Shown: piece by piece, positions 5,591 through 32,000 of the stretch | How the letters are laid out: the number at the start of each line of letters is the position of its first letter | Position numbering within the stretch: position 1 is the stretch's first letter | Assembly: GCF_000371965.1 (NCBI RefSeq) | Contig: NZ_AQUO01000001.1 | Location: forward strand, 1,359,331 to 1,391,330 | Source of the DNA: Paracoccus sp. N5 | GTDB lineage: Bacteria > Pseudomonadota > Alphaproteobacteria > Rhodobacterales > Rhodobacteraceae | Direction of reading: 5' to 3' | DNA length: 32,000 nucleotides | Translations under genes and position numbers: made by a program | The notes under the pieces: generated by a model | What the model was told of the DNA's origin: nothing | The model's database searches: none | What the model saw: only the letters and a program-made list of their open reading frames with translations

Positions 5591-5606
5591 CGCATCCTCC
5601 GCGCCG

Positions 5607-11405: not shown

Positions 11406-11452
11406 GCTTGACGTTGTGTTCATTAAAGCATAACGAATGACGATCGGTTGAA

Positions 11453-11479
11453 GGCGCGCCCCCGGTGGGGCGTGCCTTT
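11453..11479 (+). terminator. Putative intrinsic terminator after the reductase gene
   Basis: 10-bp stem, 11453-11462 (GGCGCGCCCC) pairing with 11467-11476 (GGGGCGTGCC), with one G-U pair. Loop CGGT, followed by TTT. Confidence 0.55.
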
Positions 11480-11560
11480 CGGTGCTTGCGCTTGACAGCA
11501 CTACCATACCGCGCAATCCTGATCCCGTACCTATCTCTACGACAGGCAAAGGAGGGCGCG

Positions 11561-17256: not shown

Positions 17257-18588
17257 ATGTCGCTGCGTGACCTGCCCTCGGTCGACCGGCTGCTGACCGA
17301 TTGCGGGGCGCTGATCGAAGAGCATGGCCGGGCGCAGGTCACTGATGCCTTGCGCGCCGAACTGGCCGCGATCCGCGAGGCCCGGCCCGATCCGCTGCCC
17401 GATGCGGCGGCGATCCTGGCGCTGGCGCAAGCCCGGCTGGCGCGGCTGGCGCAATCCCGGCTGCGCCCGGTGCTGAACCTGACCGGCACCGTGTTGCATA
17501 CCAACCTTGGCCGTGCCCTGCTGGCCGATGCCGCGATCGAGGCCGCAGTGGCCGCCATGCGCGCCCCCGCGGCGCTGGAATACGATCTCGACACAGGCGG
17601 GCGCGGCGAACGCGACAGCCACCTGCGCGGGCTTTTGTGCGAACTGACCGGGGCCGAGGATGCCACCGTGGTCAACAACAACGCCTCGGCGGTGCTGATC
17701 GTGCTGAACACGCTGGCGCGGGGCCGCGAGGCCGTGGTCTCGCGCGGGGAACTGATCGAGATCGGCGGCGCCTTCCGTATGCCCGCGATCATGGAACAGG
17801 CCGGCTGCCGGCTGCGCGAGGTCGGCACCACCAACCGCACCCATGCCAGGGACTACCGCGAGGCCATCACCGCCGAGACCGGCCTGTTGATGAAGGTCCA
17901 TACCTCGAACTACCGCATCGAGGGTTTCACCAAGCAGGTGCCGGCCCCCGAACTGGCGCAGATCGCGCATCAGGCGGGCCTGCCCATGGTCAACGACCTC
18001 GGCTCGGGCACGCTGGTGGATCTGCGCCGCTGGGGCCTCGCGCCCGAGCCGACCGTGGCCGAGGCGGTGGCCGAGGGCGCCGATGCCGTCACCTTCTCGG
18101 GCGACAAGCTGCTGGGCGGGCCGCAGGCGGGTTTCATCGTCGGCCGGCGCGAGATCATCGCCGCGATCAACAGGAACCCGCTGAAACGCGCCCTGCGCAT
18201 GGACAAGATCCGCATCGCCGCGACCGAGGCGACGCTGCGGCTCTACCGCGACCCCGACCGGCTGGCCGAGCGGCTGCCGACCCTGCGCCTGCTCTCGCGC
18301 CCGCTGGCCGAGATCCGGGCCCAGGCCGAACGGCTGGTGCCGATGGTCGCGCGCGCGCTCGGCTGCACCGTGACCGTGACCCCCTGCGCCAGCCAGATCG
18401 GCTCGGGCGCGCTGCCGACCGACACCATCCCCAGCGCCGGCCTCGCCCTGACCCCGCGTCCCGAGGCGCTGGCCGAAAGGCTGCGGGGCCTTGCCACCCC
18501 GATCATCGGCCGCATCCATGACGGCGCGCTGATCCTCGACCTGCGCTGCCTGCCCGATGACGCGGCGCTGACCCAAGCCCTGGCATGA
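17257..18588 (+). CDS. selA: L-seryl-tRNA(Sec) selenium transferase SelA
   Basis: 443 aa with PLP-lysine region [17 protein letters not shown]. Starts 1 nt after the fdhE stop. Confidence 0.92.
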
Positions 18589-20510: not shown

Positions 20511-20516
20511 ACGCAG

Positions 20517-20559
20517 GGAAGAGAAGCGTCCCCGGTGGGGCGGCCGGACTTCAAATCCG
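20517..20559 (+). repeat. attL: displaced 5' fragment of tRNA-Sec (43 nt, non-functional)
   Basis: GGAAGAGAAGCGTCCCCGGTGGGGCGGCCGGACTTCAAATCCG is identical to 30093-30135. It begins 6 nt after the selB stop and ends inside the 3' strand of the anticodon stem. No variable arm, T-arm or acceptor 3' strand follows. Confidence 0.9.
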
Positions 20560-20738
20560 CCCGAAAAACCAGAAATTGCAGGCGTGGAAAGTTGCGGAAG
20601 CGGCTGGAACCTTTCCAGAACGCATCGTGAATGTTGCGACGGTCTGCCTTCTGATCGGCGGTCGCCTGACGGCCTCGGCCCATGGATCCCGAATGACTAT
20701 CGCGACCTGCGGGACCGCATCCTCGGGGAGGGTGCGGA

Positions 20739-21110
20739 ATGAGCCGAAAGGTTGCCACCCTCGTCTATGAACGCCGCGCCGGATCATCGGCCCGCAAGGC
20801 AGTCCTGGCCTATTTCGCCGACTGCGCCGACGACTACGGCCGCGGCATATGGGCGTCGAAGAAGACAATCGCCGATGAGACCGAGCTTGGTCGTTCGACC
20901 GTCATCCGCGTCGTCAACGAATTCGTCGCAGAGGGCATACTGATCGTGTCCGGCCACCGCCCTTGCCGCAACGGCGCGACGGTAAATTACGATATGAACC
21001 TCGACGCCATCCGAAACCTCCCCAGCATCAATGCTTCACCCGACCCGTCCCAGAGCGGGACCTCATGGGGTCCCAGAGCGGGACCCAAACCGTCCTTGAA
21101 CCGTCCTTGA
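20739..21110 (+). CDS. Winged-helix/HTH protein, phage replication-organizer-like
   Basis: 123 aa. The region ARKAVLAYFADCADDYGRGIWASKKTIADETELGRSTVIRVVNEFVAEGIL resembles the wHTH of phage/plasmid replication or DnaD-like proteins. SD GGGGAGGG precedes the ATG. The 3' end carries DNA repeats. Confidence 0.6.
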   Translation: MSRKVATLVYERRAGSSARKAVLAYFADCADDYGRGIWASKKTIADETELGRSTVIRVVNEFVAEGILIVSGHRPCRNGATVNYDMNLDAIRNLPSINASPDPSQSGTSWGPRAGPKPSLNRP

Positions 21111-21113
21111 ACC
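21047..21113 (+). repeat. Iteron-like repeats at the junction of the two replication-module ORFs
   Basis: GTCCCAGAGCGGGACC occurs twice (21047-21062 and 21070-21085), and each copy contains the hairpin GTCCC-AGAGC-GGGAC. A tandem ACCGTCCTTGA x2 plus ACC follows (21089-21113). Confidence 0.75.
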
Positions 21114-21616
21114 AAGATGATGATGACCGCGTGCGCGAGCCAGACCATTTTTGGGGAATGATCCTCGAGGCGATGGGGCTGGACCCGGCAGAGGCGACGG
21201 CGCTTGGCGGGCCGGCGGATATGGCTGAAGCACGGGGCTGGCTTAAGCTGCCGCATATCACCGAAGAGCTGGTTTGCGAGCAGATCCGCGTGGTCATAGC
21301 CCGGAAAGGCGACAGGCAAATTCACTGCCTGGCCTATTTCACCCCCGAGATGCAGCGCTTGAGCGCGAGCCTCGAGGCGAGCAAGGTTCCGCTGACGCCG
21401 GCGACGCGCAGGCAGCCGGGCAGAGGCGAGGCGGTTCCGATGGCCGCGAACTCGGGCAAGGTCGATCTGGACGGGTTGGCCGCGTTGTGGGCGCCGAAGG
21501 TGGCCGGCGGAGGATATGTCCCGTCCTCGGCCATCAGCCCGGCGTTGGCGCGGCACATGCTCGAAAAGGGTCTGGTTGCACCGGCCGATCTGCGGCGCGC
21601 CGGGGTGTCGACATGA
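21065..21616 (+). CDS. Hypothetical protein of the replication-like module (start uncertain; may once have been fused to 20739..21110)
   Basis: The open frame runs from 20963, with ATG candidates at 21065 and 21158. It overlaps the upstream ORF in the -1 frame. The C-terminal part has no family I can recognise. Confidence 0.45.
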   Translation: MGSQSGTQTVLEPSLNQDDDDRVREPDHFWGMILEAMGLDPAEATALGGPADMAEARGWLKLPHITEELVCEQIRVVIARKGDRQIHCLAYFTPEMQRLSASLEASKVPLTPATRRQPGRGEAVPMAANSGKVDLDGLAALWAPKVAGGGYVPSSAISPALARHMLEKGLVAPADLRRAGVST

Positions 21617-21804
21617 GCGCTGGCGCTGCCGGCCGCAGCGAAAAGCCCCCGACCTGCCCTGTGGCGGTCGGGTTTGCGGCGCTGGAGCTGGCGCGCGGCA
21701 GAGAGCAGACGCCGCCGATGGCCTTGCGCGGCACGTCCTGCATTGCAGGCTGGACGATCACGCCGCCGGGGCTGGGGGACGCCTGGCACCCCCCCTTTTC
21801 GTAG
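21613..21804 (+). CDS. Small hypothetical protein (63 aa)
   Basis: ATGA stop-start overlap with the preceding ORF, followed by a terminator. No recognisable motif. Confidence 0.35.
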   Translation: MSAGAAGRSEKPPTCPVAVGFAALELARGREQTPPMALRGTSCIAGWTITPPGLGDAWHPPFS

Positions 21805-21863
21805 GTTCTTCCGAGGCCCCCACGCCATGCGAGGGGCGTATCCCCGCAAATATTCGCATGTGC

Positions 21864-21888
21864 GTGCCCTTTCGGGCGGCACTTTTTT
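21864..21888 (+). terminator. Rho-independent terminator ending the replication-like module
   Basis: GTGCC (21864-21868) ... GGCAC (21878-21882), followed by TTTTTT (21883-21888). It sits in an unusually AT-rich spacer. Confidence 0.7.
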
Positions 21889-22087
21889 ATTACTTCCTGG
21901 GGTGCCGCCGTGGCCAATGTGGACCTGCTGCTTGACCGGGAATATCCTTTGATTTTTCATATGGCTGACCCGGCGTCGGTCGATGGCTGGATTGCCCGCA
22001 GACGACCCCCCCATGAAATCCCGCCAGAGGAACGGCACGGGATACCCCCGTAACGTCCGGTAAGCCACCACAAGGAAAGGCTTTGCC

Positions 22088-22291
22088 ATGCTGCCGCGCC
22101 TGAAAACCACCATCGAGATCGACGGCGAGACCGCGCAACGCGTCGAGGCAGAACGCGAGCGGATCGCGGCTGAAACCGGGCTGCCGAAGGTGTCGCTCGC
22201 TTCCGTTATCGCCGCCGTCCTGCGCCGGGGGCTGCCGGCCTCGCCCTGCGACGGGGCCAAGCCGCCCATGCAGCCGCGCCGCGCTCGCTGA
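22088..22291 (+). CDS. Small ribbon-helix-helix-like protein
   Basis: 67 aa. MLPRLKTTIEIDGETAQRVEAERERIAAETG has the beta-strand/helix pattern of CopG/Arc/MetJ proteins. SD AAGGAAAGG is present. Confidence 0.5.
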   Translation: MLPRLKTTIEIDGETAQRVEAERERIAAETGLPKVSLASVIAAVLRRGLPASPCDGAKPPMQPRRAR

Positions 22292-22312
22292 TTTTTCCAG
22301 CTAGGAACCGCC

Positions 22313-23491
22313 ATGAGTTTCAAGAACAATGCCCCCTTCGACCGCAGCCAGAGCCGCAATCGCAGCGTCGTCGGGCAATACCTGACCCGCAACCAGCAGC
22401 CCGCCGAAAGCGCGGCCATGCACCTGCTGCGCCTGGCGCATGAGGAAGCCAGCCGCGTCCAGTCGCTTGGCCCGTCAACGCCGGCGGCGGCCTCGGGGCA
22501 TGCCGGCCAGGTCGCGGATACCCCGGCTATGGAGCGGCTCACCGATGCCGTCGCGCAGGCGCGCCGCGCGCTGCCGTTTGCCGAGCATGCGCCGGGCGGC
22601 GACCTCGACCGCATCATGCGTATTCCGATGCCCGCAGCGCGCATGGTTCATCTGAATATCGGAACTGACCATCTGCCCGTCTTCGATGCCCCCGCGGGCA
22701 ACCAGCCCAGCGAGGCCATGACCCTGGCCGAAAGCCTGCTGACCCATGCCCGCACCTTCCAAGCCGGCGCGCGACTGCTGATCGAGCCCAAGGGCCGCGT
22801 CATCGAGACCGGCACCGGCGTGCCCGCGCTGCAGGTGGTGCCCATGGGCCTCGAGGTGGTGCGGGCCGCGCCCTTCGCGGTGGTGACGGACCCGGATGGC
22901 GACGATGATCCGGAAAACCCCGGCACGGCCCCGCTGATCCCGCTCGATACAATTCTGGCCGGCGCACGGATCGAAAGGCCCGACGATCTGAAAAACTATG
23001 CGATCCGGGTCTCGCTGACCCGGCGCGAACAGAAAGATCGCAACGACGGCGAGTTGCTGGCCGCTCTGCTGCATTCCATCACGCTGGGTCTGGCCCAGGC
23101 GGCCGATGCCGAGCTTCTGGGCGCGATCCTGGCGGCTGATCCGGGGACGTTCAGCCTGGGCGCTGCCGCGGCCAAGGGCGTGCGCTTTCACGAACTGCGC
23201 GCCATCGTCGGCACCGATGAGCCGGTGAGCGGGTCGGATTTCGGCCCGGGCTATGGCGACCAGCCCGGCCAGCTGTTCGTGCATTCGATCCCGGCCGAGC
23301 TGTGTGCCGCTGCCGCGCGGACGGTGATCGGCGCTTTCGATCGCTTTGGTCTGGCCATCGGCGGCGATATCCGGCTGCTGATCGATCGCACCGCCGTGGA
23401 TGGCAGCCTGACTGCCACCTGCTGGTGCGCGATGAAGGCTGTCCTGCCCGATCCGGGCTTTGCCTGGCGCTTTACTCCGGAGATGCCGTGA
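22313..23491 (+). CDS. Candidate HK97-fold major capsid-like protein (divergent)
   Basis: 392 aa. The segment IRVSLTRREQKDRNDGELLAALLHSITLGLAQAADAELLGAIL and the C-terminus ..LTATCWCAMKAVLPDPGFAWRF resemble the conserved central and C-terminal patterns of phage major capsid proteins. Small coupled ORFs and a gpZ-like gene follow, matching the lambda/HK97 head-to-tail gene order. This call rests on pattern recognition only. Confidence 0.45.
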   Translation: MSFKNNAPFDRSQSRNRSVVGQYLTRNQQPAESAAMHLLRLAHEEASRVQSLGPSTPAAASGHAGQVADTPAMERLTDAVAQARRALPFAEHAPGGDLDRIMRIPMPAARMVHLNIGTDHLPVFDAPAGNQPSEAMTLAESLLTHARTFQAGARLLIEPKGRVIETGTGVPALQVVPMGLEVVRAAPFAVVTDPDGDDDPENPGTAPLIPLDTILAGARIERPDDLKNYAIRVSLTRREQKDRNDGELLAALLHSITLGLAQAADAELLGAILAADPGTFSLGAAAAKGVRFHELRAIVGTDEPVSGSDFGPGYGDQPGQLFVHSIPAELCAAAARTVIGAFDRFGLAIGGDIRLLIDRTAVDGSLTATCWCAMKAVLPDPGFAWRFTPEMP

Positions 23492-23844
23492 TGGGCCTGC
23501 GGGACTGGTTCAGCCCCCGCGGCGCGCATCGGCCCGCACCCGCGGCGCCGGGGAACATGCTGCCGGCCGAGGTCGTGGCTGTGGTGCAGGCGGCAAGCAT
23601 CCGCAACGCCAACCGCCCGGATGCCGAGGGCAGCCCGATCATCCATGTGACGGCGCCGGCGCTGGGCCGGTTCCGCTGGGTCGATCTGGACAAGGCTGCC
23701 GACCGCATTTCGGATGCCTGGCCCGAGCTGACGCCCGCCCAGTGCTTCCGCGCCGCGCAGCTGATCGAGGCGGCGGTGGGCGACGCGGCCATTGCGAGCC
23801 TGCAGCGCGGGCAACCCCGGCGCAGCTGGGTCTGGGACTGGTGA
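23491..23844 (+). CDS. Hypothetical protein (117 aa), head-tail connector position
   Basis: TGATG stop-start overlap with the capsid-like gene. Its position is that of head completion/adaptor genes. Confidence 0.5.
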   Translation: MGLRDWFSPRGAHRPAPAAPGNMLPAEVVAVVQAASIRNANRPDAEGSPIIHVTAPALGRFRWVDLDKAADRISDAWPELTPAQCFRAAQLIEAAVGDAAIASLQRGQPRRSWVWDW

Positions 23845-24017
23845 TGGCGCGCAAGCCGCTGCCCGCGTCTCTGCGCCGCCTCGCCAAGCCCACGGCCGCG
23901 CTGGCGGTCGAGAATACACCCCCGCCCAAGGGCAAGAACCCCAGCGCCCGCCGGGTTCGGCGGCTGGCGCGCAAGGGCTGGCTGATCGGCTGGCCGTTTT
24001 CCAAAGGAGTGCTGTGA
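23844..24017 (+). CDS. Small basic hypothetical protein (57 aa)
   Basis: TGATG overlaps at both ends. Lys/Arg-rich. Confidence 0.45.
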   Translation: MARKPLPASLRRLAKPTAALAVENTPPPKGKNPSARRVRRLARKGWLIGWPFSKGVL

Positions 24018-24364
24018 TGGCGACACGCTATCAGCTGACGATCATCGGGGAAGCCGCCCAGGTTGCGCCTTCCATCATCGTGGACGGGCGCGCGTTGCAG
24101 GACGGCCAGAGGGTCGAGGTTGACCTTGCCACGGCCGTGGCCCTGGTCGAGCGCGGCCTTGCTATCCCGCGCGGCAGGATCGAGATCGAGCCGGTGCTGA
24201 AACCGAAACGCGGGCAGGCTGTCATGGTCGATGGCAGGGCCTGCTTTGACGGCGACACGGTCGAGGCCGGCTGGGCCGTCGCGCATGACCTGGTCGCGCG
24301 CGGCCGTGCCCGTCTGGCCGAGGGCGTCAGGCTGCCCCGCTTCAACCCGGATGCGCGCAAATGA
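24017..24364 (+). CDS. Hypothetical protein with two copies of a ~35-aa module
   Basis: Contains IIVDGRALQDGQRVEVDLATAVALVERGLA and VMVDGRACFDGDTVEAGWAVAHDLVARGRA. TGATG overlap upstream and ATGA overlap downstream. Confidence 0.55.
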   Translation: MATRYQLTIIGEAAQVAPSIIVDGRALQDGQRVEVDLATAVALVERGLAIPRGRIEIEPVLKPKRGQAVMVDGRACFDGDTVEAGWAVAHDLVARGRARLAEGVRLPRFNPDARK

Positions 24365-24576
24365 TGTTCGAAATCGAGATCATCGGCCAGCACCGGCCAG
24401 CCTCGCCCCTGCGCCCCGCACCGCGGGCAGGGATCATCCTGCATGGTCAGGCCCGCCTTGCCGGCGAGCGCATCAGCGTGGACTGGGCGACTGCGCGGCA
24501 CCTGATCGCCAACGGCCGCGCCAAGCCCGCGCCGGGCGTGACGATCCCGCTCTTGGACCCGGAGCGGCGCCAATGA
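24361..24576 (+). CDS. Hypothetical protein with a third copy of the same module
   Basis: IILHGQARLAGERISVDWATARHLIANGRA aligns with both repeats of the preceding ORF. ATGA overlaps on both sides. Confidence 0.55.
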   Translation: MMFEIEIIGQHRPASPLRPAPRAGIILHGQARLAGERISVDWATARHLIANGRAKPAPGVTIPLLDPERRQ

Positions 24577-25172
24577 GCCGATGGAGCCGCCGTATTCCCG
24601 GCCCGCAGGTTTCCATCGAGGTCGATCTCCGCCAGGTCAAGATGGTGATTGATGAGCTGAAAAGTACCAAGGAGGAGGTCGGCGCGTCCCTATCCAAAGC
24701 ACTGCGCCGCACCGCCAGCGCCTTGCGCGTCATGTCATCCAAGCGCCTGGTTCCCGAACTTCAGCTGCGCCGCGCAATGGACCTGCGCAAACGGCTGAAA
24801 ACCATGAAGGTACGGGCCAAGGGCAAGGACGCCGAACAGGTGATTGGCTTGTGGTTCGGGCTGTCCAGGATGCCGGTCTCGGCCTTCAAGGGCCGGCCCG
24901 TACAAACCGGCAAAGGCGTGAGCTTTCAAGGCAGAGAATATAAGGGCCGATTCCTGGCAACCATGCCAGGACAGACGCATGCCGGAATGTTCCGCCGCAA
25001 GGGTCGTGCGCGTTTGCCGATTGTCGGTCAGAACGTCGAGATCAAGGATGTGGTGGACCCGATCATCGAGGATGAAATCTTCCCGAAGGCCACGGAAATA
25101 TTCATCCGGAACTTCCTGCATGATCTGAAGTGGCGTGCCAGCCAGCGGAACAAGCCTTCAGCCGGGGAATAG
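24573..25172 (+). CDS. Phage minor tail protein Z-like / tail-completion protein
   Basis: 199 aa. The layout ..ALRRTASALRVMSSKRLVPELQLRRAMDLRKRLK.., ..MPVSAFKGRPVQTGKGVSF.., ..GMFRRKGRARLPIV.. parallels lambda gpZ as I recall it. It is the last gene of the virion-type operon. Confidence 0.5.
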   Translation: MSRWSRRIPGPQVSIEVDLRQVKMVIDELKSTKEEVGASLSKALRRTASALRVMSSKRLVPELQLRRAMDLRKRLKTMKVRAKGKDAEQVIGLWFGLSRMPVSAFKGRPVQTGKGVSFQGREYKGRFLATMPGQTHAGMFRRKGRARLPIVGQNVEIKDVVDPIIEDEIFPKATEIFIRNFLHDLKWRASQRNKPSAGE

Positions 25173-25182
25173 CATCGGGATA

Positions 25183-25212
25183 CCCGGCGCGCTGTTCATG
25201 GGGCGCGCCGGG
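25183..25212 (+). terminator. GC-rich hairpin, probable terminator of the virion-type operon
   Basis: 10-bp perfect stem CCCGGCGCGC (25183-25192) / GCGCGCCGGG (25203-25212) with a 10-nt loop. It starts 11 nt after the TAG stop. No U-tract. Confidence 0.5.
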
Positions 25213-25492
25213 CAGACGGGGCGGGATGCGCCTGGCTTTTATCCATGGGCCGAAGCAACCGGGCAAGTCGGCGAGTGCCCCATAACCCCGACATGGCGCG
25301 GCCGTGGCCTTGTCGGCGCGGCGCCACAGCCCCGGTGCAGCACATGCTGGCCGGGGCTTTCTCTTTGCGCCAGCGGCGTGCCATGGCACACCTGCCATTG
25401 GCGGACGTGCGCGCCGGGTTGTTCAACCTGCAATGCAGGATGTTGCATCTCTACCACACTCCCCATTGGGGGACGTCATCAATGTGAGGGCG

Positions 25493-25512
25493 TCAGACCC
25501 CGGCCAGCTTGC
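25493..25512. repeat. 20-bp direct repeat of the brnA 3' end
   Basis: TCAGACCCCGGCCAGCTTGC is identical to 25628-25647, which covers the stop codon and last 6 codons of brnA on the minus strand. Confidence 0.8.
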
Positions 25513-25627
25513 CAGAGGTGTTCCACCGGCGGTGGACGACATCCGCGCCGGGCAGAGCGCGAACGTCCTTCATCCTCGCTTTGAGGGCGGATCATTGCGA
25601 CAACCCCCATGGGGCTCGCCAGGCGGA

Positions 25628-25870
25628 TCAGACCCCGGCCAGCTTGCGCAGGGCGTCGTCTATGCGGCTTTGCCAGCCCGGGCCGCCGGCCTTGAAATAG
25701 GCGATCACCTCGGGGCTAAGCCGGATGGTGGTGCTGACCTTGGCGTTTTCCAGCTTCGGCCGGCCGCGCTGGACCGTGGCCTTGGCGGCGCGCTTTTCCC
25801 AATAGGGCGTCGCCAGGTCGGGCGCGTCGTCGTCAAAATCGGGGGGCATAGGCTTTCTGTTCGCGGTCAT
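25628..25870 (-). CDS. brnA: BrnA-family antitoxin
   Basis: 80 aa. ..RGRPKLENAKVSTTIRLSPEVIAYFKAGGPGWQSRIDDALRK.. matches the BrnA (COG3514) signature. It overlaps the brnT 3' end. Confidence 0.8.
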   Translation of the reverse strand: MTANRKPMPPDFDDDAPDLATPYWEKRAAKATVQRGRPKLENAKVSTTIRLSPEVIAYFKAGGPGWQSRIDDALRKLAGV

Positions 25871-26105
25871 TGGCCTTCCTCATGCTGATGACGTGGGCGG
25901 TGTCGCTGCGCGGCGTCCAGACCATCACCACCATGCGGCCGCGCAGGAAGCCGATGCTGATGAGGCGGGTTTCGCCATAGTCGAAGCGATCATCCTCGAA
26001 CGTCAGTGTCGCGCCAGCCAGAACCTCGGCGCCGTCCGCTTCAAGATCGATCCCCCGCTCTGCAAGGGTCTTGGCGCGCTTCGCCGGGTCGCTGGTGCAT
26101 TTCAT
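25833..26105 (-). CDS. brnT: BrnT-family (DUF497) ribonuclease toxin
   Basis: 90 aa. DPAKRAKTLAERGIDL...DDRFDYGETRLISIGFLRGRMVVMVWTPRSDTAHVISMRKANDRE matches the BrnT pattern, including ISMRKA..E. Confidence 0.8.
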   Translation of the reverse strand: MKCTSDPAKRAKTLAERGIDLEADGAEVLAGATLTFEDDRFDYGETRLISIGFLRGRMVVMVWTPRSDTAHVISMRKANDREQKAYAPRF

Positions 26106-26153
26106 GTAGTAACAATAATTATGAGGGGCGCGGGCGTCAATATCTGTAGTAAC
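26105..26153. promoter_or_regulatory. Candidate brnTA operator: two TGTAGTAAC boxes 40 bp apart
   Basis: TGTAGTAAC at 26105-26113 (abutting the brnT start codon) and at 26145-26153, within an AT-rich 60-bp spacer. Confidence 0.4.
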
Positions 26154-26165
26154 GGAAAGTCGTGG

Positions 26166-26540
26166 TCAGGGCTTGAGGCGACGCTTGCGGCGTCTGCGCG
26201 GCAACAGAAGCTGCGGGAGGGCATGATAGCAACCCAGCCGCAAGCTTATAATCAGCGGAGGCGTCCATCCCGGTATCCAGGGTTCGGTCTCTTTGGCGGT
26301 GATCACTCCGTGCATCACATGCTCCACCTTGTTCACCGCTCCGCCGCGAACAATGAAGGCGACCCTTGCCCCCTCGACCACGCCCCACAACGCCAGCACA
26401 TCGGGACAGTAGTGGGTCAATAGCAGGGATATTTCCATGCTCTCTTGTTCCGCGTCTAGGTGCGCGGGCGGGGTGAAATCTATGATATGCCCGGCATAGC
26501 CCTTGTCAGCGACAGATAGGAACATGGTCGACAAAGGCAT
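26166..26540 (-). CDS. Hypothetical protein (124 aa), unknown function, lower-GC cargo gene
   Basis: The ORF lies 6 nt downstream of the Arc-like gene on the same strand. It has a basic C-terminal tail RRRRKRRLKP. I recognise no family. Confidence 0.45.
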   Translation of the reverse strand: MPLSTMFLSVADKGYAGHIIDFTPPAHLDAEQESMEISLLLTHYCPDVLALWGVVEGARVAFIVRGGAVNKVEHVMHGVITAKETEPWIPGWTPPLIISLRLGCYHALPQLLLPRRRRKRRLKP

Positions 26541-26546
26541 TGGCGG

Positions 26547-26945
26547 TCAGGGCTTCAGGCGCTGGGCGAGCTTGTCTGCCAGCAGGTTGGCAAAGCTCTC
26601 AATGTCATCTGCAGCCCGCAGCTTTCTCAATACCTGTCCGATCGGCATTTTCCCGACATCTGGCACCCCCTTCAGGGCATCGCCGATGCCCTCACTCTGC
26701 CGATCCAAGGCTGCTACAGGCTCCCCGCTTTCTTCATGCTTTGCCAACATATCGCCGACCGTGTTGGGGCGATCTTCGTCATGCCAATCGTAATACTTCT
26801 GGAGCGCCATCAGAATTTCTGAATGAAGGCTGCGCCCATGCAGATCAGCCTCCTCCTGAATAAACTCCTTCAAGGCCGGCGGGATGCGCAAGCCATAGGG
26901 TGCCAGGCGGGTGGGGTATTTTCGAGAGTCAGCCATAGCGGCCAT
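26547..26945 (-). CDS. Arc/MetJ-type ribbon-helix-helix regulator with a ~80-aa C-terminal extension
   Basis: YGLRIPPALKEFIQEEADLHGRSLHSEILMALQKYY is an Arc-family RHH motif. The start is uncertain (ATG 26945, 26936 or 26978). Confidence 0.65.
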   Translation of the reverse strand: MAAMADSRKYPTRLAPYGLRIPPALKEFIQEEADLHGRSLHSEILMALQKYYDWHDEDRPNTVGDMLAKHEESGEPVAALDRQSEGIGDALKGVPDVGKMPIGQVLRKLRAADDIESFANLLADKLAQRLKP

Positions 26946-27006
26946 TGGTAACCAATTTTTCCTTGACTGAAAATACATACCAATGGTAACTAACTACCAA
27001 TGGTAG
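26942..27006. promoter_or_regulatory. Divergent promoter/operator region with three CCAWTGGTA boxes
   Basis: CCATTGGTAA at 26942-26951, CCAATGGTAA at 26980-26989, and CCAATGGTAG at 26997-27006. The AT-rich spacer contains TTGACT (26963-26968). The region lies between two divergently oriented Arc-family genes. Confidence 0.55.
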
Positions 27007-27024
27007 TTGATGGAGAGCACCCAG

Positions 27025-27183
27025 ATGGAAAAATATGAGCAGATCTCGCTGCGCCTACCCGACGGTTGGCGCCGTGCGCTGAAGATCGCCGCCGCCGTGA
27101 ACGGCCGCAGCATGAACGCCGAGATCGTGCAGCGTCTGCGCCCGACCCTCGAAGCCGCCGATGCCCAGCGCCCGCAATCCTGA
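27025..27183 (+). CDS. Arc-family ribbon-helix-helix repressor (not in the supplied ORF track)
   Basis: My own translation gives MEKYEQISLRLPDGWRRALKIAAAVNGRSMNAEIVQRLRPTLEAADAQRPQS*. The motif LRLP....L...A...GRSMNAEIV..L is the Arc-domain signature. SD GGAGAG precedes ATG 27025 (alternative ATG 27010). Confidence 0.7.
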   Translation: MEKYEQISLRLPDGWRRALKIAAAVNGRSMNAEIVQRLRPTLEAADAQRPQS

Positions 27184-27253
27184 AATGAAAGCGGCCGGGC
27201 AGCGTTGCACCGCTGACACCGGCCTTGATGCCCCCGAGAAAGGACATTTCCCC

Positions 27254-27478
27254 ATGAATATCCCTGAAAATCCCTGCAAAGGCAACCTGCCGGTTTCGCC
27301 AGCGCCCCGCCGCCGGCCCGGCCAGCCCAAGCGCAAGGCCACCGAAAAGCGCGTCAGCCGCGCCGCCAGCCTGATCCAGGACCATATCGCTGTGCTGACT
27401 GCCCAGCGCATCACGCTGCCCGTCCTCGGTCTCGAGGTCGCGCTGGATGAGCTGCGCCAAATCGGGGGTGCGCAATGA
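27254..27478 (+). CDS. Small hypothetical protein (74 aa), ends ..RQIGGAQ
   Basis: SD AAAGGA upstream. The 3' end is junction cassette copy 1. The N-terminus MNIPENP parallels MNIQPNEP of ORF 31092..31313. Confidence 0.5.
   Translation: MNIPENPCKGNLPVSPAPRRRPGQPKRKATEKRVSRAASLIQDHIAVLTAQRITLPVLGLEVALDELRQIGGAQ
27461..27478 (+). repeat. Stop-start junction cassette copy 1 (ATCGGGGGTGCGCAATGA)
   Basis: 18-mer shared with 27808-27825 (identical), 28397-28414 and 28600-28617 (2 to 3 differences each), and with 31092-31109 on the minus strand. Confidence 0.85.
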
Positions 27479-27825
27479 ACCGCCGCGATCTGATCGCCCT
27501 GCCGGCCGCTGTCGCCTTCGCACCTGCGCCGGCGCTGGGCGCTGCAATCGCCCCGGTTTCCCTGCGGGCGCTGTGGCAGCATGCGAAAGCGCTGAATGAC
27601 CGCCTCGAGGCGACCGAGCGCGCCGAGGATCCGGTCGCCTGGGATGCCGGCATGGCGCAGCTCATCCATCTTCAGGACCGGATCGCCGCGGCACCGGCCT
27701 GCACGCCCGAGGCTTGGGCGATAAAGGTCTTGAGCGCCGACGATGGCGGCGCCATCGAGAATGCCAGCGATCTGGGCCGCGCCCTGGTCGAACAGGCGCG
27801 CAGCATGATCGGGGGTGCGCAATGA
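27475..27825 (+). CDS. Hypothetical protein with twin-arginine-like N-terminus (116 aa), ends ..SMIGGAQ
   Basis: MNRRDLIALPAAVAFAPAPALGAA is similar to MNRRALLKALPAAVVAGAAPAAA of ORF 30321..30674. ATGA overlaps at both ends. Confidence 0.55.
   Translation: MNRRDLIALPAAVAFAPAPALGAAIAPVSLRALWQHAKALNDRLEATERAEDPVAWDAGMAQLIHLQDRIAAAPACTPEAWAIKVLSADDGGAIENASDLGRALVEQARSMIGGAQ
27808..27825 (+). repeat. Stop-start junction cassette copy 2 (ATCGGGGGTGCGCAATGA)
   Basis: Identical to copy 1. Confidence 0.85.
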
Positions 27826-28202
27826 GCCGCCGTCCCACCGTGGCGCGTTTCTCGCTTTCCGCGTCCGCGCGCCAGCACATCGACGCCATCATGGCTACGG
27901 CACGCGACCAGATAGAAGCCGTTCTGCAACGAGAGGTGTCCCGCCTGATCGCAGATGCGCATGACGGCGCTAACCAAAAGGCTGCGCACCACCGCCCGGC
28001 GAAGCAGGAGGTTATGGCAACGCCCGCAGTCCCGCAGCCGATCTATATCCGCCCGGGCAAGGCGCAGCAGATGTTCGGCGTGCATCGCGCAACGCTATAC
28101 CGCTGGGCGAATGCCGGCCACATCACCATTCACAAGCGCGGCGCAGCGACCTTTGTCCGGCTGGACGAGGTGCGCGCCTTCATCGAAGGAAACCAGCCAT
28201 GA
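27822..28202 (+). CDS. Excisionase/AlpA-type HTH DNA-binding protein
   Basis: The C-terminal IYIRPGKAQQMFGVHRATLYRWANAGHITIHKRGAATFVRLDEVRAFIEG matches the MerR-like HTH_17/AlpA/Xis pattern. It lies upstream of int in the same operon. Confidence 0.65.
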   Translation: MSRRPTVARFSLSASARQHIDAIMATARDQIEAVLQREVSRLIADAHDGANQKAAHHRPAKQEVMATPAVPQPIYIRPGKAQQMFGVHRATLYRWANAGHITIHKRGAATFVRLDEVRAFIEGNQP

Positions 28203-28414
28203 TGACGCGCGACCTGCAACGCGCCGCGAACGACCAGACGGAGGCCGACGCCCAGGCTGAAGAGATCCTGCGCCGCGTCTATGCGCTGACCGCCCCTTAC
28301 CAGCGCCGCGTGGTCGAATGGCTGCGCGGGCATTCCGACCCCGACATGCGCGACCTCGCCACGCCGCTCGAGGAGGTGCTCACCCTTCGCCGACTGATCG
28401 GGGGTGAACAATGA
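28199..28414 (+). CDS. Small hypothetical protein (71 aa), ends ..RLIGGEQ
   Basis: ATGA overlaps on both sides. SD AAGGA upstream. Confidence 0.5.
   Translation: MMTRDLQRAANDQTEADAQAEEILRRVYALTAPYQRRVVEWLRGHSDPDMRDLATPLEEVLTLRRLIGGEQ
28397..28414 (+). repeat. Stop-start junction cassette copy 3 (ATCGGGGGTGAACAATGA)
   Basis: 16 of 18 identical to copy 1. Confidence 0.8.
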
Positions 28415-28617
28415 GCATTACCCGCATCATTCAGGTGGATACGCAAGGCAAGCCGCTTGACGGGCCAGACCTGATCTTCACGAACAAGTGGGCTGTCAAA
28501 GCCGGATTAATGGAAAATCGGCCGGTCGTTGTTCGGGCATTTGAAGCGCGAATCACGAAAAAGGGCTTGGCCGAAATCGCCCGTCAGATGGGCCGGCAGA
28601 TCGGGGGTGAACCATGA
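28411..28617 (+). CDS. Small hypothetical protein (68 aa), ends ..RQIGGEP
   Basis: ATGA overlaps on both sides. Locally lower GC. Confidence 0.5.
   Translation: MSITRIIQVDTQGKPLDGPDLIFTNKWAVKAGLMENRPVVVRAFEARITKKGLAEIARQMGRQIGGEP
28600..28617 (+). repeat. Stop-start junction cassette copy 4 (ATCGGGGGTGAACCATGA)
   Basis: 15 of 18 identical to copy 1. Confidence 0.8.
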
Positions 28618-28835
28618 CCCGGCTTGTCCATCCCTCCTCGCCGCTCCGGCACCAGACGCTGATCTTCGCCGGCTATGCTGCCCTTCTCTTGGCCTTCGGC
28701 GCCGCGGCGCTGGGCGCCCTGTTGGCCCCGCAGTTCGACTGGGCGGGCCTCTGGGGCGATCTGTCCGACTTTGCCGCCTCCACGGCCGCCCAGGCGCGCG
28801 CCGAGGGCTGGGCCGCGCTTTCCGAGAGGGCGTGA
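28614..28835 (+). CDS. Small membrane protein (73 aa, one TM helix)
   Basis: Hydrophobic stretch LIFAGYAALLLAFGAAALGALLA. ATGA overlap upstream. Confidence 0.5.
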   Translation: MTRLVHPSSPLRHQTLIFAGYAALLLAFGAAALGALLAPQFDWAGLWGDLSDFAASTAAQARAEGWAALSERA

Positions 28836-28838
28836 GCC

Positions 28839-29012
28839 ATGGGTGTCCGTACCAAGTTCAGCCAAGCCGACCTAGAGAAGGTGCTTCGCACGACCAGAGA
28901 GGCCGGCCTGCCGGTGACCGTAGTCAGGATAGGGCCGCAGGGGGAAATCGAAGTGCGCTGCGGCCCGCAGGAACCCGCAGACGAATTCGACGCGACGGAT
29001 ATGCGCCGATGA
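28839..29012 (+). CDS. Small hypothetical protein (57 aa; not in the ORF track)
   Basis: My own translation gives MGVRTKFSQADLEKVLRTTREAGLPVTVVRIGPQGEIEVRCGPQEPADEFDATDMRR*. SD GAGAGGG upstream, and an ATGA overlap with the int start. Confidence 0.5.
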   Translation: MGVRTKFSQADLEKVLRTTREAGLPVTVVRIGPQGEIEVRCGPQEPADEFDATDMRR

Positions 29013-30016
29013 CCAAGAAGGAACTGCCGAAACACGTCTATCGCAAGAAGGGCGGCAAGGTCTATTTTCAGCGCCGCGGCTTCAAGACGGTCCGTTTCAT
29101 CAGCGAACCGGGCACTTCGGAGTTCGCTGCGGAATATGCCCTGATCCTGCGCGGCCGCGCGCCGGTGCCCGAAGGGCGAACCCTGAAGGCATTGGCGATC
29201 AGTTACCAGCTCAGCGACCGCTTCACGGGCTTGGCGCCTAGAACGCGGCAGGATTATCTGCGCGTGCTGGACTATGTGAAGGAGAAGCTGGGCCACCTGC
29301 CGGCCGACAGAATGCAGCGCAAGGACGTGATCCGGGCACAGCAGGCCAACAAGGACGCGGTGCGCTTCGCCAACTACATCGTCCAGGTGCTTCGCGTCAT
29401 GTTCGAGCATGGGATCGATCAGGGCTGGCGTGACGACAATCCAGCCAAAGGCGTTCGCCTGCTGAAAAGCGGTCGGCCGCCCCGCTTGCCATGGCCGCCC
29501 GAGAAAATCACGGCGTTCCGTGAGGCTGCGCCCCTTGGGACCCGCGGCAGGTTGATCTTCGAGCTTCTGCTGGGCACCGGCCAGCGCATTGGTGATGTGC
29601 TCAAGATGCGGTGGAACGACCTCGAGGAAGGCGGGGTGAATGTCCGACAGGGCAAGACAGGAGCGGAGTTGTGGATACCGCTGACCAGCGGCTTGCGCGA
29701 GGCGCTGGGCGCGACGCCAAAGGCCGGACTGACCATCTGCGCGCAGCTGAACGGCAGCCCGACCAGCTACGACGGTGCGCATGCCATGATCATGGCCATT
29801 CGAAAGGAAATCGGCGCCGAGGCCTTCGACATTCACGCCTTGCGCCACACCGCGGCGCATGAGCTGGCTGCGGCCGGCTGCTCGGGCGAACTGATCCAGG
29901 CGATCACGGGGCATACGAACCTGGGGATGGTGAAGCACTATACTGGTTCCGCTAGCCAGAAGCCCCGTGCTAAGGAGGCGCAGTCGCGCCGCGAACAGAA
30001 CAGGTGCGAAACGTGA
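29009..30016 (+). CDS. int: Tyrosine recombinase / phage-type integrase
   Basis: 335 aa with catalytic signature LLLGTGQRIGD (Arg I), HALRHTAAH (H-x-x-R), ITGHTN and VKHY (Tyr). Start at ATG 29009, not at 28529 as in the track. It ends 76 nt before tRNA-Sec. Confidence 0.9.
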   Translation: MTKKELPKHVYRKKGGKVYFQRRGFKTVRFISEPGTSEFAAEYALILRGRAPVPEGRTLKALAISYQLSDRFTGLAPRTRQDYLRVLDYVKEKLGHLPADRMQRKDVIRAQQANKDAVRFANYIVQVLRVMFEHGIDQGWRDDNPAKGVRLLKSGRPPRLPWPPEKITAFREAAPLGTRGRLIFELLLGTGQRIGDVLKMRWNDLEEGGVNVRQGKTGAELWIPLTSGLREALGATPKAGLTICAQLNGSPTSYDGAHAMIMAIRKEIGAEAFDIHALRHTAAHELAAAGCSGELIQAITGHTNLGMVKHYTGSASQKPRAKEAQSRREQNRCET

Positions 30017-30092
30017 AAGTTGAGAAGCTGTTGCGAACGGCCCAAATCGGGGGCACGGATGCAGCGAACAAACCATTGGAAACGATGGTGAT

Positions 30093-30135
30093 GGAAGAGA
30101 AGCGTCCCCGGTGGGGCGGCCGGACTTCAAATCCG
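30093..30135 (+). repeat. attR core: 43-bp repeat forming the 5' part of the intact tRNA-Sec
   Basis: Identical to 20517-20559. The flanking bases differ on both sides (20516 G vs 30092 T; 20560 C vs 30136 G). Confidence 0.9.
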
Positions 30136-30188
30136 GTTGGGGCAGTCAGCCTGTCCCGGGTGGGTTCGACTCCCACTCTCTTCCGCCA
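30093..30188 (+). tRNA. selC: tRNA-Sec (anticodon UCA)
   Basis: 96 nt with an 8-bp acceptor stem GGAAGAGA/TCTCTTCC, discriminator G and encoded CCA. The anticodon stem is CCGGA/TCCGG with loop CTTCAAA (TCA at 30127-30129). It has a long variable arm and a T-arm GTGGG-TTCGACT-CCCAC, and overall closely parallels E. coli selC. Confidence 0.93.
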
Positions 30189-30291
30189 AAATGCCCATTT
30201 AACTGGTTGTTATTGCTAAATTATATCCTGGCATCACAGCGGCGTCCCGCCAATGCATCCCCCACGCGGAATTGGCCAGAATGACGGATTT

Positions 30292-30313
30292 GCCCCCGGC
30301 CGAAGCCAGGGGC
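30292..30313 (-). terminator. Stable hairpin with UUCG tetraloop downstream of ORF 30321..30674
   Basis: The minus strand reads GCCCCUGGC-UUCG-GCCGGGGGC, a 9-bp stem including one U-G pair. It begins 8 nt after the stop codon. No U-tract. Confidence 0.45.
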
Positions 30314-30320
30314 GTTGGTA

Positions 30321-30674
30321 TCAAGCAACGAGCGCTCGGGCCTCGGCCCAGAAAGCATGATCGTCATTCGGCAATTCAAATGTCCCGTAGCTCGTCCACG
30401 CCAGCGCCTTGGCGATCATGTCGCGCGCATCCTCTGCGGGCGCTTCCATAATCCGATTGCTCAACTCATTCTGAGCGAACAGGTCGGCGTTAAACTGGCT
30501 CTCGGGCATCGTGCGGCCTTCTTCGCCGTTCAGTCGGGTTTCCTCGGCAACCCACTGTCGAAACATCCGCATGACCGGCGTCTCAGCCAGGTCGACCACG
30601 CACAGCGCAGCAGCCGGCGCCGCACCCGCGACAACCGCCGCAGGCAGGGCTTTCAGAAGGGCACGGCGGTTCAT
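30321..30674 (-). CDS. Hypothetical protein with twin-arginine-like N-terminus (117 aa); paralog-like to 27475..27825
   Basis: Reads MNRRALLKALPAAVVAGAAPAAA.... SD AAGGAGG upstream and an ATGA overlap with the upstream ORF. Confidence 0.55.
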   Translation of the reverse strand: MNRRALLKALPAAVVAGAAPAAALCVVDLAETPVMRMFRQWVAEETRLNGEEGRTMPESQFNADLFAQNELSNRIMEAPAEDARDMIAKALAWTSYGTFELPNDDHAFWAEARALVA

Positions 30675-30895
30675 TGTCCGGCCTCCTTGCGCTGGATCTG
30701 ATACTCGGCCTCAAGCAGCTCCTGCGCCTTCTTGACGCGATCCGCGACCACTTGGATCAGGTTGATGATGCCCGAGGCGATGGGCGCGTCGTCTTGCGTC
30801 AGGTGGTCGAGGGCCACTTCATCAAGGACGCACAGCAGCGCCCCGATGGTATGAAGCTCGGCTTCGGTTTCGCTATGCGCTTTGAAATAGCTCAT
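30671..30895 (-). CDS. Small hypothetical protein (74 aa)
   Basis: ATGA overlaps at both ends. SD GGAGGG upstream. Confidence 0.5.
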   Translation of the reverse strand: MSYFKAHSETEAELHTIGALLCVLDEVALDHLTQDDAPIASGIINLIQVVADRVKKAQELLEAEYQIQRKEAGQ

Positions 30896-31095
30896 GCCTC
30901 GCCCTCCTTCGGCAGGTTGATGCTGTCGAGATTGTTGTTCACCTCAAGCGCCATTTCCTTGGCGAGTTGCACCAGGGTCGGCTGAGCGTTCGGGACCACG
31001 CCATCGAGCGCGCAGGCTTCCAGAAGTTCCAGCAGATCGCACAGCCGCCCCATGATGGTCTGCTGGTCTTGGATATGTCGGGTAAGCGCGCTCAT
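30892..31095 (-). CDS. Small hypothetical protein (67 aa)
   Basis: ATGA overlaps at both ends. The junction cassette GATCGGGGGTGCGGCATGA precedes it on the minus strand. Confidence 0.5.
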   Translation of the reverse strand: MSALTRHIQDQQTIMGRLCDLLELLEACALDGVVPNAQPTLVQLAKEMALEVNNNLDSINLPKEGEA

Positions 31096-31109
31096 GCCGC
31101 ACCCCCGAT
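31092..31109 (-). repeat. Stop-start junction cassette, fifth copy, inverted relative to the island copies
   Basis: The minus strand reads ATCGGGGGTGCGGCATGA, 16 of 18 identical to 27461-27478. The upstream protein ends ..SLIGGAA. Confidence 0.8.
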
Positions 31110-31313
31110 CAGGCTGACGGTGTAGCGCTTCGCGGCGCGAAGGTAGCGGCGCAGTTCCTTTTCCCGCTGGGTGTAATCACCGCTGTCCTTGTGGCTCACG
31201 TCGAGCGCCAGCGACAGGCTGTCGTCCAATTCGTAGAGGTCCGCGAGCGACATGCTGGGGGCCGGGACGGCGGGCGCCCCAACCATACGCGGTTCATTCG
31301 GTTGGATGTTCAT
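31092..31313 (-). CDS. Small hypothetical protein, ends ..SLIGGAA (start ATG 31313; alternative GTG 31325)
   Basis: The N-terminus MNIQPNEP parallels MNIPENP of ORF 27254..27478. The C-terminus is encoded by the junction cassette. Confidence 0.5.
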   Translation of the reverse strand: MNIQPNEPRMVGAPAVPAPSMSLADLYELDDSLSLALDVSHKDSGDYTQREKELRRYLRAAKRYTVSLIGGAA

Positions 31314-31346
31314 TTCAGTTCTCACAGTTCTGGCTTTCCACAGCCG

Positions 31347-31589
31347 TCACTGGTTGCGGACCAGCGGCCGGGGGTTGGAAACCTGCTGTGAGACAGGTCG
31401 GACGACTTTAAGGTTTCCCTCTGGACATAGCATCCGCCCCCGGCCTATAAAGGTCGGGACGCAGATGCCCGCCAAGGCATCCGTCATTTCGACCGCGAGC
31501 TTCCGCGCCAACGGATGCTCAACCTGCCAAGGTATGCGGTCTATCACAGTCAGGGTTTCCACACCCACTGACCACGCTACACCCGACAT
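31347..31589 (-). CDS. Hypothetical protein (80 aa), weakly supported
   Basis: Same strand, 21 nt upstream of the next ORF. No clear SD and no motif. Confidence 0.3.
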   Translation of the reverse strand: MSGVAWSVGVETLTVIDRIPWQVEHPLARKLAVEMTDALAGICVPTFIGRGRMLCPEGNLKVVRPVSQQVSNPRPLVRNQ

Positions 31590-32000
31590 GCCGAAAAGGT
31601 CAAGCCTGCCCCTCGGGGCGGTGGCATGCGTTTGTGCCGCATCGGTCGTTTCTCGACGCGGGCGTAACCTCTCTGCGCGCAGTTCAGCGCGCTACATTGG
31701 AATGAGGTTACACATGACCATCCAAAAGAAATTGCGTGTGCCCAGCGGAGTGCAGATCTGGGTCAACGACGGGCATTTGGCACCGGATTGGGTTGCTGAG
31801 GCTGTCCAAGAGGAACGGGCGTGCAACGGCTCACTGCTCCTGCGAACGCAACTAGGCGTTGCCCGGGTTCACAGAGGCATGTCGTGATCAGATGACGACT
31901 GCCTTTCCTGCCGAAGCCCCGAGGACCTGGACGAGTTCCTTCGCGGCCTGACGCAAGAAGCGGCGCCGGTCATTGCGGCCATCGGCCCTGGTAAATCGGC

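Follow-up and report, generated by a model that had tools for sequence, protein, structure and literature searches.

The fdh-sel locus and its interrupted tRNA-Sec gene

The window considered here is a stretch of 32,000 nucleotides (nt) from Paracoccus sp. N5. It carries genes for a formate dehydrogenase (FDH), for the selenocysteine (Sec) insertion machinery and for tRNA-Sec (selC), the last of which is occupied by an integrative element, or island. The island provides the 5' part of the intact, chimeric selC, and the host provides the 3' part. On the host side, the gene of the FDH alpha subunit (11465-14644, + strand) is formed by joining the open reading frames (ORFs) 11465-12160 and 12173-14644, which lie in the same frame, and the reading frame is uninterrupted across the TGA at 12158-12160. 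A selenocysteine insertion sequence (SECIS) element for reading this UGA was located at 12155-12213 (+) with the Rfam family RF01989 (SECIS_3; 79.7 bits against a gathering score of 63, E=1.6e-17). The homologous loci of FDH alpha show Molybdop_Fe4S4, Molybdopterin and Molydop_binding domains, and the protein is a client of tRNA-Sec. Further downstream lie selA for selenocysteine synthase (17257-18588, +; Pfam SelA, E=1.6e-165) and selB for the Sec-specific elongation factor (18585-20510, +; Pfam GTP_EFTU plus the SelB beta-barrel and winged-helix domains). The nearest SelB homologues are Paracoccus proteins, and selB is the final gene ahead of the native selC position.

The intact selC lies at 30093-30188 (+). 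ARAGORN calls it with the anticodon TCA (UCA in the tRNA), and it is the only tRNA called in the 32-kb window. It matches Rfam RF01852 over the full length with 81.5 bits, the gathering score being 47, and its minimum free energy fold gives back the cloverleaf. Comparison of the selC region with the window by self-BLAST revealed a direct repeat, 20517-20559 and 30093-30135, identical at 43 of 43 nt (E=1e-19); the second-best self-match is 13 nt long. The repeat corresponds to nt 1-43 of tRNA-Sec: it includes the 5' strand of the acceptor stem, the D arm, the anticodon loop (nt 33-39) and the first 4 nt of the 3' strand in the anticodon stem. The upstream copy, which marks the left attachment site (attL), is therefore a 5'-end fragment of selC. 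It is displaced 9.5 kb upstream of the intact gene, in direct orientation on the same (+) strand, and begins 6 nt after the selB stop. ARAGORN makes no tRNA call on this stub, which is a non-functional, dead fragment of selC. The identity block of the right attachment site (attR), 30093-30135 (+), was defined by the self-match and by comparison with the tRNA-Cys relatives discussed below.

The 9,533 bp between the repeats (20560-30092, +) are inserted DNA, because empty sites in related Paracoccus run contiguously from selB into selC with matching flanks. These empty sites were sought in the contigs that code for the closest SelB proteins. In L087, whose SelB is 89% identical, selB is followed after 5 nt by an intact selC and by a flank that matches 30189-30344 of the window. 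The contig aligns to 20284-20559 (91.7%) and then passes straight to 30091-30344 (82.8%), 20560-30092 being missing. In three more contigs (L088, L089 and L090, including Paracoccus sp. pheM1), selC starts 0-1 nt past the selB stop and is followed by genes for an aldo-keto reductase, NMO and PhyR. The occupied locus L086 shows the same right flank as the empty L088 and L090, with int ahead of selC. The left junction of the island is also marked by a step in G+C from 0.745 to 0.633. All DNA upstream of the working selC, plus nt 1 to ~32 of the gene itself, thus comes from the element.

Native Paracoccus selC starts 0-6 nt past the selB stop. Since this leaves no intergenic room for a promoter of its own, native selC is taken to be part of the fdh-fdhE-selA-selB transcript, from which the tRNA would have to be processed. 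In the empty sites L088 (7933-8050) and L090 (7934-8050), selC also ends ~20-25 nt before the start codon of the aldo-keto reductase gene, so that it looks like a gene sitting between two ORFs of one transcript. In the window, the native transcription context apparently now ends in the dead 5' stub. The genes selA and selB and the UGA-bearing FDH gene are intact in the island-carrying genomes; therefore selC is evidently still functional there.

The arrangement is not confined to the window. The same layout, i.e., a stub beside selB, int, 76 nt and selC, is found in P. simplex, P. yeei and metagenomic contigs, whose integrases are 75-91% identical to that of the window and are referred to below as the selC clade. 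The distance from int to selC is exactly 76 nt in every one of these loci, and the nt 1-43 stub lies beside selB in all those whose contig reaches so far, including P. simplex L002 and P. yeei L082. The islands found at this site in P. yeei (CP020442) and P. simplex are mosaic relatives, with sizes of 6.9 and 9.1 kb. 

The sequence-only reading of this stretch had recognized most of this structure. Its proposals that the island supplies the 5' half of selC and everything upstream, and that the native selB-proximal context now drives a dead fragment, are borne out by the empty sites in L087-L090. The exact 43-nt repeat confirms its description of the stub as the 5' part of the gene, from nt 1 to the 3' strand of the anticodon stem. 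Its placement of tRNA-Sec 76 nt behind int, at the end of a nine-gene operon headed by an Arc-type gene, holds in its coordinates. The continuous ORF and the SECIS_3 match agree with an FDH that needs UGA to be read at 12158, and the claim of an only intact selC stands within the window.

With regard to excision, attL and attR match exactly over the repeat, and neither int nor xis is disrupted in sequence. A Logan unitig (L001, window 20530-30122) covers the island and extends 30 nt into the repeat on either side. It was considered as an excised circle and rejected, as its ends correspond to k-1 = 30 nt of the repeat, i.e., to breaks of the de Bruijn graph. Unitig L091 likewise ends 30 nt inside the repeat, at a graph break with no circular junction.

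Polarity of the attachment site in the integrase family

The last protein gene of the island encodes a tyrosine integrase of 335 amino acids (29009-30016, +; Pfam Phage_integrase PF00589, 1.9e-26), with domain matches to Phage_int_M and Phage_integrase only. It has 591 homologues, mostly in Rhodobacterales. Eighty genomic loci coding for relatives of the integrase were all scanned for tRNAs and repeats. About 55 of them contain a tRNA-Cys(GCA) gene with its 3' end towards the element, and ~38 of these contain a second repeat, which is always nt 31-74 of tRNA-Cys. This is the textbook polarity at an anticodon-loop sublocation. The selC arrangement mirrors the family norm, with an identity block that reaches from the loop back to nt 1. 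The nt 1-43 block of selC and the nt 31-74 blocks of tRNA-Cys have only the anticodon stem-loop in common; therefore the crossover almost certainly takes place there, probably within the anticodon loop at 30125-30131. Both targets have the palindromic stem arms CGGA ... TCCG, and a single base separates their anticodons, which points to a neighbour-to-neighbour switch of target from tRNA-Cys (GCA) to tRNA-Sec (UCA).

Reversed polarity also occurs at tRNA-Cys. In L073, a 5' stub spanning nt -3 to 42 is accompanied by an intact gene that is preceded by a degraded integrase gene, and the DNA upstream of the stub has homologues in front of the native tRNA-Cys at >30 other loci. This locus (11376-12065 and 20381-20726) comes from a Maritimibacter metagenome-assembled genome (MAG). 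Its reversed insertion is fixed, the stub having diverged to 93% identity; the adjacent integrase gene carries stop codons, and an element-borne promoter, GCTTGACG...CTATCAA, precedes the intact tRNA-Cys. L073 thus reads as a domesticated example of the same rewiring, in which tRNA-Cys now seems to rely on the promoter brought by the element. The reversal in L073b is fully verified. In L070b and L080, no 5' stub was found before the locus or contig ended, and these tRNA-Cys elements are reversed by geometry only.

In bootstrapped neighbour-joining trees, the integrases of the window and P. simplex fall together in 200 of 200 replicates. A single clade of all reversed integrases was considered and rejected, the four intact ones being monophyletic in 0 of 200 bootstraps. 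The trees resolve shallow clades only, and no sister group of the selC clade is named. Polarity reversal in this integrase family appears to be rare, recurrent and fixed within the selC clade; recurrence, i.e., independent origins, is read from the fact that the reversed integrases are never monophyletic. The sequence-only reading had left room for the 5' polarity being common in the family. It turned out otherwise: ~38 verified loci with a 3' fragment compare with a handful of reversed ones. A one-step route through a secondary site, from a canonical tRNA-Cys attP (the attachment site of the element) to the reversed selC attP, was also looked for, and none was found that rebuilds a working gene. 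Conceivably, the ancestral attP contained the whole tRNA.

Several canonical loci of the family show further variation. In L003 (4672-4830) and L005 (4610-4770), whose integrases are 57-60% identical, a 3' fragment of tRNA-Cys in forward orientation lies 83 nt past int. Here int would lie at the stub end of a canonical island, which appears to be a third att/int geometry in the family. The bin of L003 is a gammaproteobacterial MAG (Luminiphilus), perhaps through a binning error or else because of a wider host range. In L028, L031, L034, L045 and L070, at ~4200-5800, a second integrase (33-37% identical) ends just before the 3' stub. At these canonical loci, two distinct elements thus probably lie in tandem at the same tRNA-Cys.

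Islands with a 5' fragment have been catalogued before, and the rarity implied by the sequence-only reading was overestimated in this respect. Islander lists 3760 islands with a 3' tRNA gene (tDNA) fragment and 159 with a 5' fragment, 3919 in total (PMC4383910), so that a survey of 5'- versus 3'-stub polarity already exists. Recombination of the 5'-distal kind has been called 'considerably less frequent', with reference to Zhao & Williams 2002 and several archaeal cases (PMC6563490). The Paracoccus island has the features of such an island: an internal tyrosine integrase, an intact tDNA with its cognate 5' fragment upstream, and an empty site. Islands with 'reversed target gene orientation' (Zhao & Williams 2002, J Bacteriol 184:859, as cited in later papers) likewise combine a tyrosine integrase with an intact tRNA gene and an upstream 5' fragment, and the element restores the 5' part, replacing the upstream region of the gene. 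The present case differs in its target, selC, in a native gene that is embedded in an operon and has no promoter of its own, and in element-borne upstream DNA that lacks a recognisable promoter in three of four lineages. Identity blocks bounded by the anticodon stem-loop, as seen here, are also known (Williams 2002; Islander class A). The selC block is a mirror image of these, since it occupies the 5' side of the gene from the loop outwards instead of the 3' side.

The functional logic proposed here is the same as in the archaeal pTN3-like, or TKV4-type, elements (Krupovic & Bamford 2008; Cossu et al. 2017), for which the 5' half of a tRNA gene serves as attB. The rebuilt tRNA is then reportedly expressed from the integrase promoter, an arrangement seldom met in bacteria (PMC8371274). 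The integrase gene of these archaeal elements is 'suicidal', as it spans attP and is split on integration; in the bacterial host Paracoccus, by contrast, int is an intact ORF for 335 amino acids that stops 76 nt short of the att block, with attP downstream of int.

Enterobacterial selC islands insert at the 3' end of the gene and leave its own promoter in place. Such islands (LEE, SHI-2) share the target gene with the present one, selC being a hotspot for mobile DNA, and have P4-type integrases with an arm-binding domain, whereas the integrase of the window is without Arm-DNA-bind_3, faces the 5' end of selC and is associated with a repeat of the 5' part. In P. yeei, a prophage with a 15-nt terminal repeat in tRNA-Sec and another with 52-nt repeats at the start of tRNA-Pro genes have been described (PMC6209633). 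Finally, native selC after selB belongs with the tRNA genes that are co-transcribed with mRNAs, and the island remakes this 'tRNA as operon tail' behind int; unlike in the native case, the upstream operon belongs to a mobile element with its own repressor.

The phenomenon and its logic are thus established, and the Paracoccus case is a clean bacterial example in a known minority class. What it contributes is a selC target with 5' polarity, an operon-embedded native gene without a promoter, an apparent lack of an element-borne promoter, and a mirror image within the same family and sublocation. Current understanding is not overturned. The case does show that a mobile element can take over the whole upstream context of a single-copy tRNA gene needed by an entire class of proteins, and that one integrase family has both canonical and mirror-image att sites, with the target apparently switched between tRNAs differing by one anticodon base. 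A family that flips polarity round a palindromic anticodon-stem core could serve as a natural system for polarity reversal and target switching. Island-mapping pipelines that take a 3' fragment for granted would overlook such islands or set their limits wrongly.

Source of the tRNA-Sec transcript

The genes ahead of selC form an operon of nine: an Arc-like repressor gene (27007-27183, +; Pfam Arc 1e-9, FitA-like ribbon-helix-helix (RHH) 1.5e-7) and eight co-oriented ORFs up to int. Seven of these are small and mostly ATGA-coupled (27254-29012, +; read from the sequence and from gene calls on L001), with an excisionase-like gene (xis) at 27822-28202 (+; HTH_17 2e-9, phrog_66 excisionase 9e-10). 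The junctions comprise six ATGA overlaps, including that of the int ATG with the preceding stop, one gap of 3 nt and one of 70 nt, the latter after the Arc-like gene. A second RHH (Arc-like) protein is encoded divergently (26547-26978, -; Pfam Arc 9e-5). Between the two RHH genes lies the candidate promoter/operator of the int operon (26943-27006, +), as read from the sequence. It contains TTGACT (26963) and TAACTA (26987), 18 nt apart, overlapped by the palindromes ATTGGTAACCAAT (~26945) and TACCAATGGTA (26978 and 26995), which are built of TGGTA/TACCA half-sites. The three palindromes probably represent an operator array for the Arc-like proteins. This candidate promoter was scored by neither of the two consensus scans described below.

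The int-selC spacer (30017-30092, +), which is derived from the island, was examined by alignment, folding and promoter scans. Right after the int stop it contains the tandem boxes GTTGAGAA (30019) and GTTGCGAA (30030), 11 bp apart. GTTGAGAA-N3-GTTGCGAA is the sole block conserved among four diverged spacers of the selC clade, with no conserved -10 element. In the spacer of L080, comparable tandem repeats (two copies of TGTGCAGAGACT) precede a separate promoter. The boxes are probably arm-type Int sites in view of their position, the tandem 11-bp spacing, their conservation and the L080 analogy. If this is the case, the fixed 76-nt spacer would be a constraint of attP geometry. GTTGMGRA boxes show no enrichment across the window (7 matches vs. 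3.85 expected), and statistically enriched arm sites of this form were rejected, since 12 of 100 shuffles do as well. A hairpin (ACCAUUG-GAAA-CGAUGGU in the fold) occupies 30072-30088, 4 nt before the first nucleotide of tRNA-Sec. In P. yeei (L082, ~11064-11079), a hairpin of other sequence (CGTCA-GTAA-TGACG) is found at the same place, and L086 has no obvious equivalent. The hairpin could be a processing site or a site for Int or a host factor.

Promoters were searched for in two ways. A generic sigma-70 scan was based on the Escherichia coli consensus, which was judged too strict for this taxon; together with a terminator scan, it gave no + strand site in 26400-30600 or in the 3' end of selB. 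In particular, the terminator scan predicted nothing downstream of selB and the stub, nor between int and selC. The second scan employed a taxon-specific position weight matrix (PWM) built from 49 native Rhodobacterales tRNA-Cys promoters and scored the 120 nt upstream of a tRNA. These promoters, recognised at 49 of 59 loci, consist of cTTGAC or cTTGCA, ~17 nt and cTAnnn, ending 11-22 nt before position +1, and their leave-one-out scores have a median of 17.3 and a minimum of 7.9. The DNA upstream of the island-borne selC scores 0.1 in the window, 1.7 in P. simplex and -5.5 in P. yeei, all at shuffle level for this PWM, which covers only sigma-70-type promoters like those of tRNA-Cys. Native selB 3' ends upstream of selC score at shuffle level as well (-0.6 to 1.3), and the PWM finds no site scoring >=8 within int. 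L086 reaches 13.3, and the reversed tRNA-Cys elements L080 and L073b reach 16.3 and 15.4, respectively. A promoter is therefore recognisable upstream of the island-borne selC in one of four lineages (L086) and not in the other three. The failure of the sequence-only reading to see a convincing promoter in 30017-30092 is thus matched by the taxon-specific model. Because that model finds no spacer promoter, it is the more likely of the two options put forward there that selenoprotein synthesis would be wired to island transcription instead of to an island-borne promoter.

Taken together, a site-specific island insertion through an attP with the 5' part of selC, combined with synthesis of tRNA-Sec by read-through from the xis-int operon, is probably the correct reading. 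A small element of a Rhodobacterales tyrosine-integrase family, carrying rep, a toxin-antitoxin pair, RHH repressors, xis and int, recombined with a Paracoccus selC, almost certainly in its anticodon stem-loop. On the int-proximal arm, its attP holds nt 1-43, the 5' part of selC, where most elements hold the 3' part. Integration left the dead 5' stub behind selB and rebuilt a full selC 76 nt past int; these structural steps are visible directly in the repeats and the empty sites. The host fdh-fdhE-selA-selB transcript would now end in the stub, and the working tRNA-Sec would be the 3' tail of the Arc/RHH-controlled xis-int transcript, freed by RNase P and 3' processing. One operon tail would thus have been exchanged for another, selC being apparently promoter-less natively and again in the island. 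Modest autoregulated transcription could suffice, as tRNA-Sec is in low demand, and precise excision would bring back the native arrangement. The repressor-xis-int operon is the most likely source of tRNA-Sec because no promoter above shuffle level is found before selC and no terminator is predicted between int and selC. The co-orientation of int and selC, the fixed spacer length and the pTN3-like precedent lend further support to read-through.

Several observations weigh against this reading. L086, itself a member of the selC clade, has a good promoter-like site before selC, AATTGCCC-N16-CTAACCA at a distance of 18 nt, whose score was reached by 0 of 300 shuffles, and the reversed tRNA-Cys elements L080 and L073b have clear promoters of native type in the equivalent spacer. 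A dedicated element-borne promoter is therefore the solution adopted elsewhere in the integrase family. A dedicated island-borne promoter in the 76-nt spacer or the 3' end of int, perhaps atypical or read by an alternative sigma factor, would make tRNA-Sec constitutive and independent of the Arc operon. It is a serious rival, though a rather unlikely one. The conserved TTGAGA and TTGCGA after the int stop do look like -35 hexamers. This rival has to contend with shuffle-level scores of the spacers in the window, P. simplex and P. yeei, with the missing conserved -10 downstream of the boxes and the empty generic scan on the + strand, and with the tandem arrangement of the boxes directly past the int stop, which, like the L080 analogue with its separate promoter, favours arm-type Int sites. 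Tight repression of the int operon might also leave read-through too weak.

A second intact selC elsewhere in the genome would make the whole arrangement physiologically irrelevant. tRNA-Sec genes do occur on chromids and plasmids of other Paracoccus species; on the other hand, selC is normally a single-copy gene, and in all relatives examined it lies at this fdh-sel locus. In P. yeei CCUG 32053, tRNA-Sec is found on the chromosome only (PMC6209633). This explanation is judged improbable. Less probable still, to the point of being hardly credible, is that the host fdh-selAB transcript reads through the stub and the whole island into selC. The lack of predicted terminator-like sites after selB and the stub and in 26400-30600 would permit it, as would the + orientation of most island genes. 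The distance to be covered is 9.5 kb through DNA of different composition, four genes on the opposite strand (25628-26978; BrnTA, one of unknown function and one RHH) would give convergent transcription, and Rho-dependent termination is likely in untranslated stretches.

Under the preferred reading of read-through from the xis-int operon, a regulatory consequence for the host is plausible from the gene order. With a native selC that has no promoter, the usual solution in which the element brings one is not obviously applicable, and the tRNA may ride on the integrase transcript. A far-reaching version, in which a single promoter-less tRNA-Sec is made only as the tail of the RHH-repressed xis-int operon and selenoprotein synthesis is coupled to the regulatory state of the element, is put forward tentatively and is more doubtful than read-through as such. 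If it were true, FDH synthesis would depend on the regulatory state of a mobile element, and transcription of fdh-selAB would in turn continue past the dead stub and reach the rep gene of the island.

Other island genes and the right flank

At the left end of the island, the N-terminal domain of a replication initiator is encoded at 20739-21110 (+; Pfam HTH_36 1.7e-8; PHROG replication initiation families 8e-14). The C-terminal part lies at 21065/21161-21616 in another frame, the ORFs overlapping. The Rep of the P. yeei island is a single ORF of 329 amino acids (HTH_36 plus a DnaD_N-like domain), and it matches the window only over residues 177-328, at 21161-21610 in a different frame. The rep gene of the window appears to be split in two, possibly by a frameshift that may disable autonomous replication. 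The small plasmids pYEE7 and pYEE8 of P. yeei have a Rep of the HTH_36 type (PMC6209633). The cargo includes a phage 'tail completion / Neck1'-like protein of 199 amino acids (24573-25172, +; phrog_27 over the full length, E=8.3e-28). The island holds no further recognisable virion genes, and this gene hints at a satellite of a phage, or of a gene transfer agent, and not a plain integrative plasmid. A BrnT/BrnA type II toxin-antitoxin pair is located at 25628-26105 (-; Pfam BrnA 4e-19, BrnT 1e-18).

The motif ATCGGGGGTG(M)(R)C(M)ATGA, 18 nt long, is repeated at four successive gene junctions of the int operon (27461-27478, 27808-27825, 28397-28414 and 28600-28617, +) and once more at a gene junction in the right flank (31092-31109, -), with 0 matches expected by chance. 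The four small operon proteins that carry it end in ...IGG(A/E)(Q/P). The motif could be a translational-coupling cassette or the boundary of a recombination module. A related sequence, AATCGGGGG, is present in the int-selC spacer at ~30047.

The right flank itself (30189-32000) is set apart by low G+C, small ORFs and this junction motif, and its ORFs gave no Pfam match. It is partly kept in L087 and L083 and probably belongs to a further mobile element lying 3' of selC. In L087 (8028-13926), the homologous right flank leads into phage tail and terminase genes. In P. yeei (L082, 11293-12756), a P4-type integrase gene (Arm-DNA-bind_3) begins ~110 nt past selC. Paracoccus selC may thus be sandwiched between an element of 5' polarity and a canonical one of 3' polarity.

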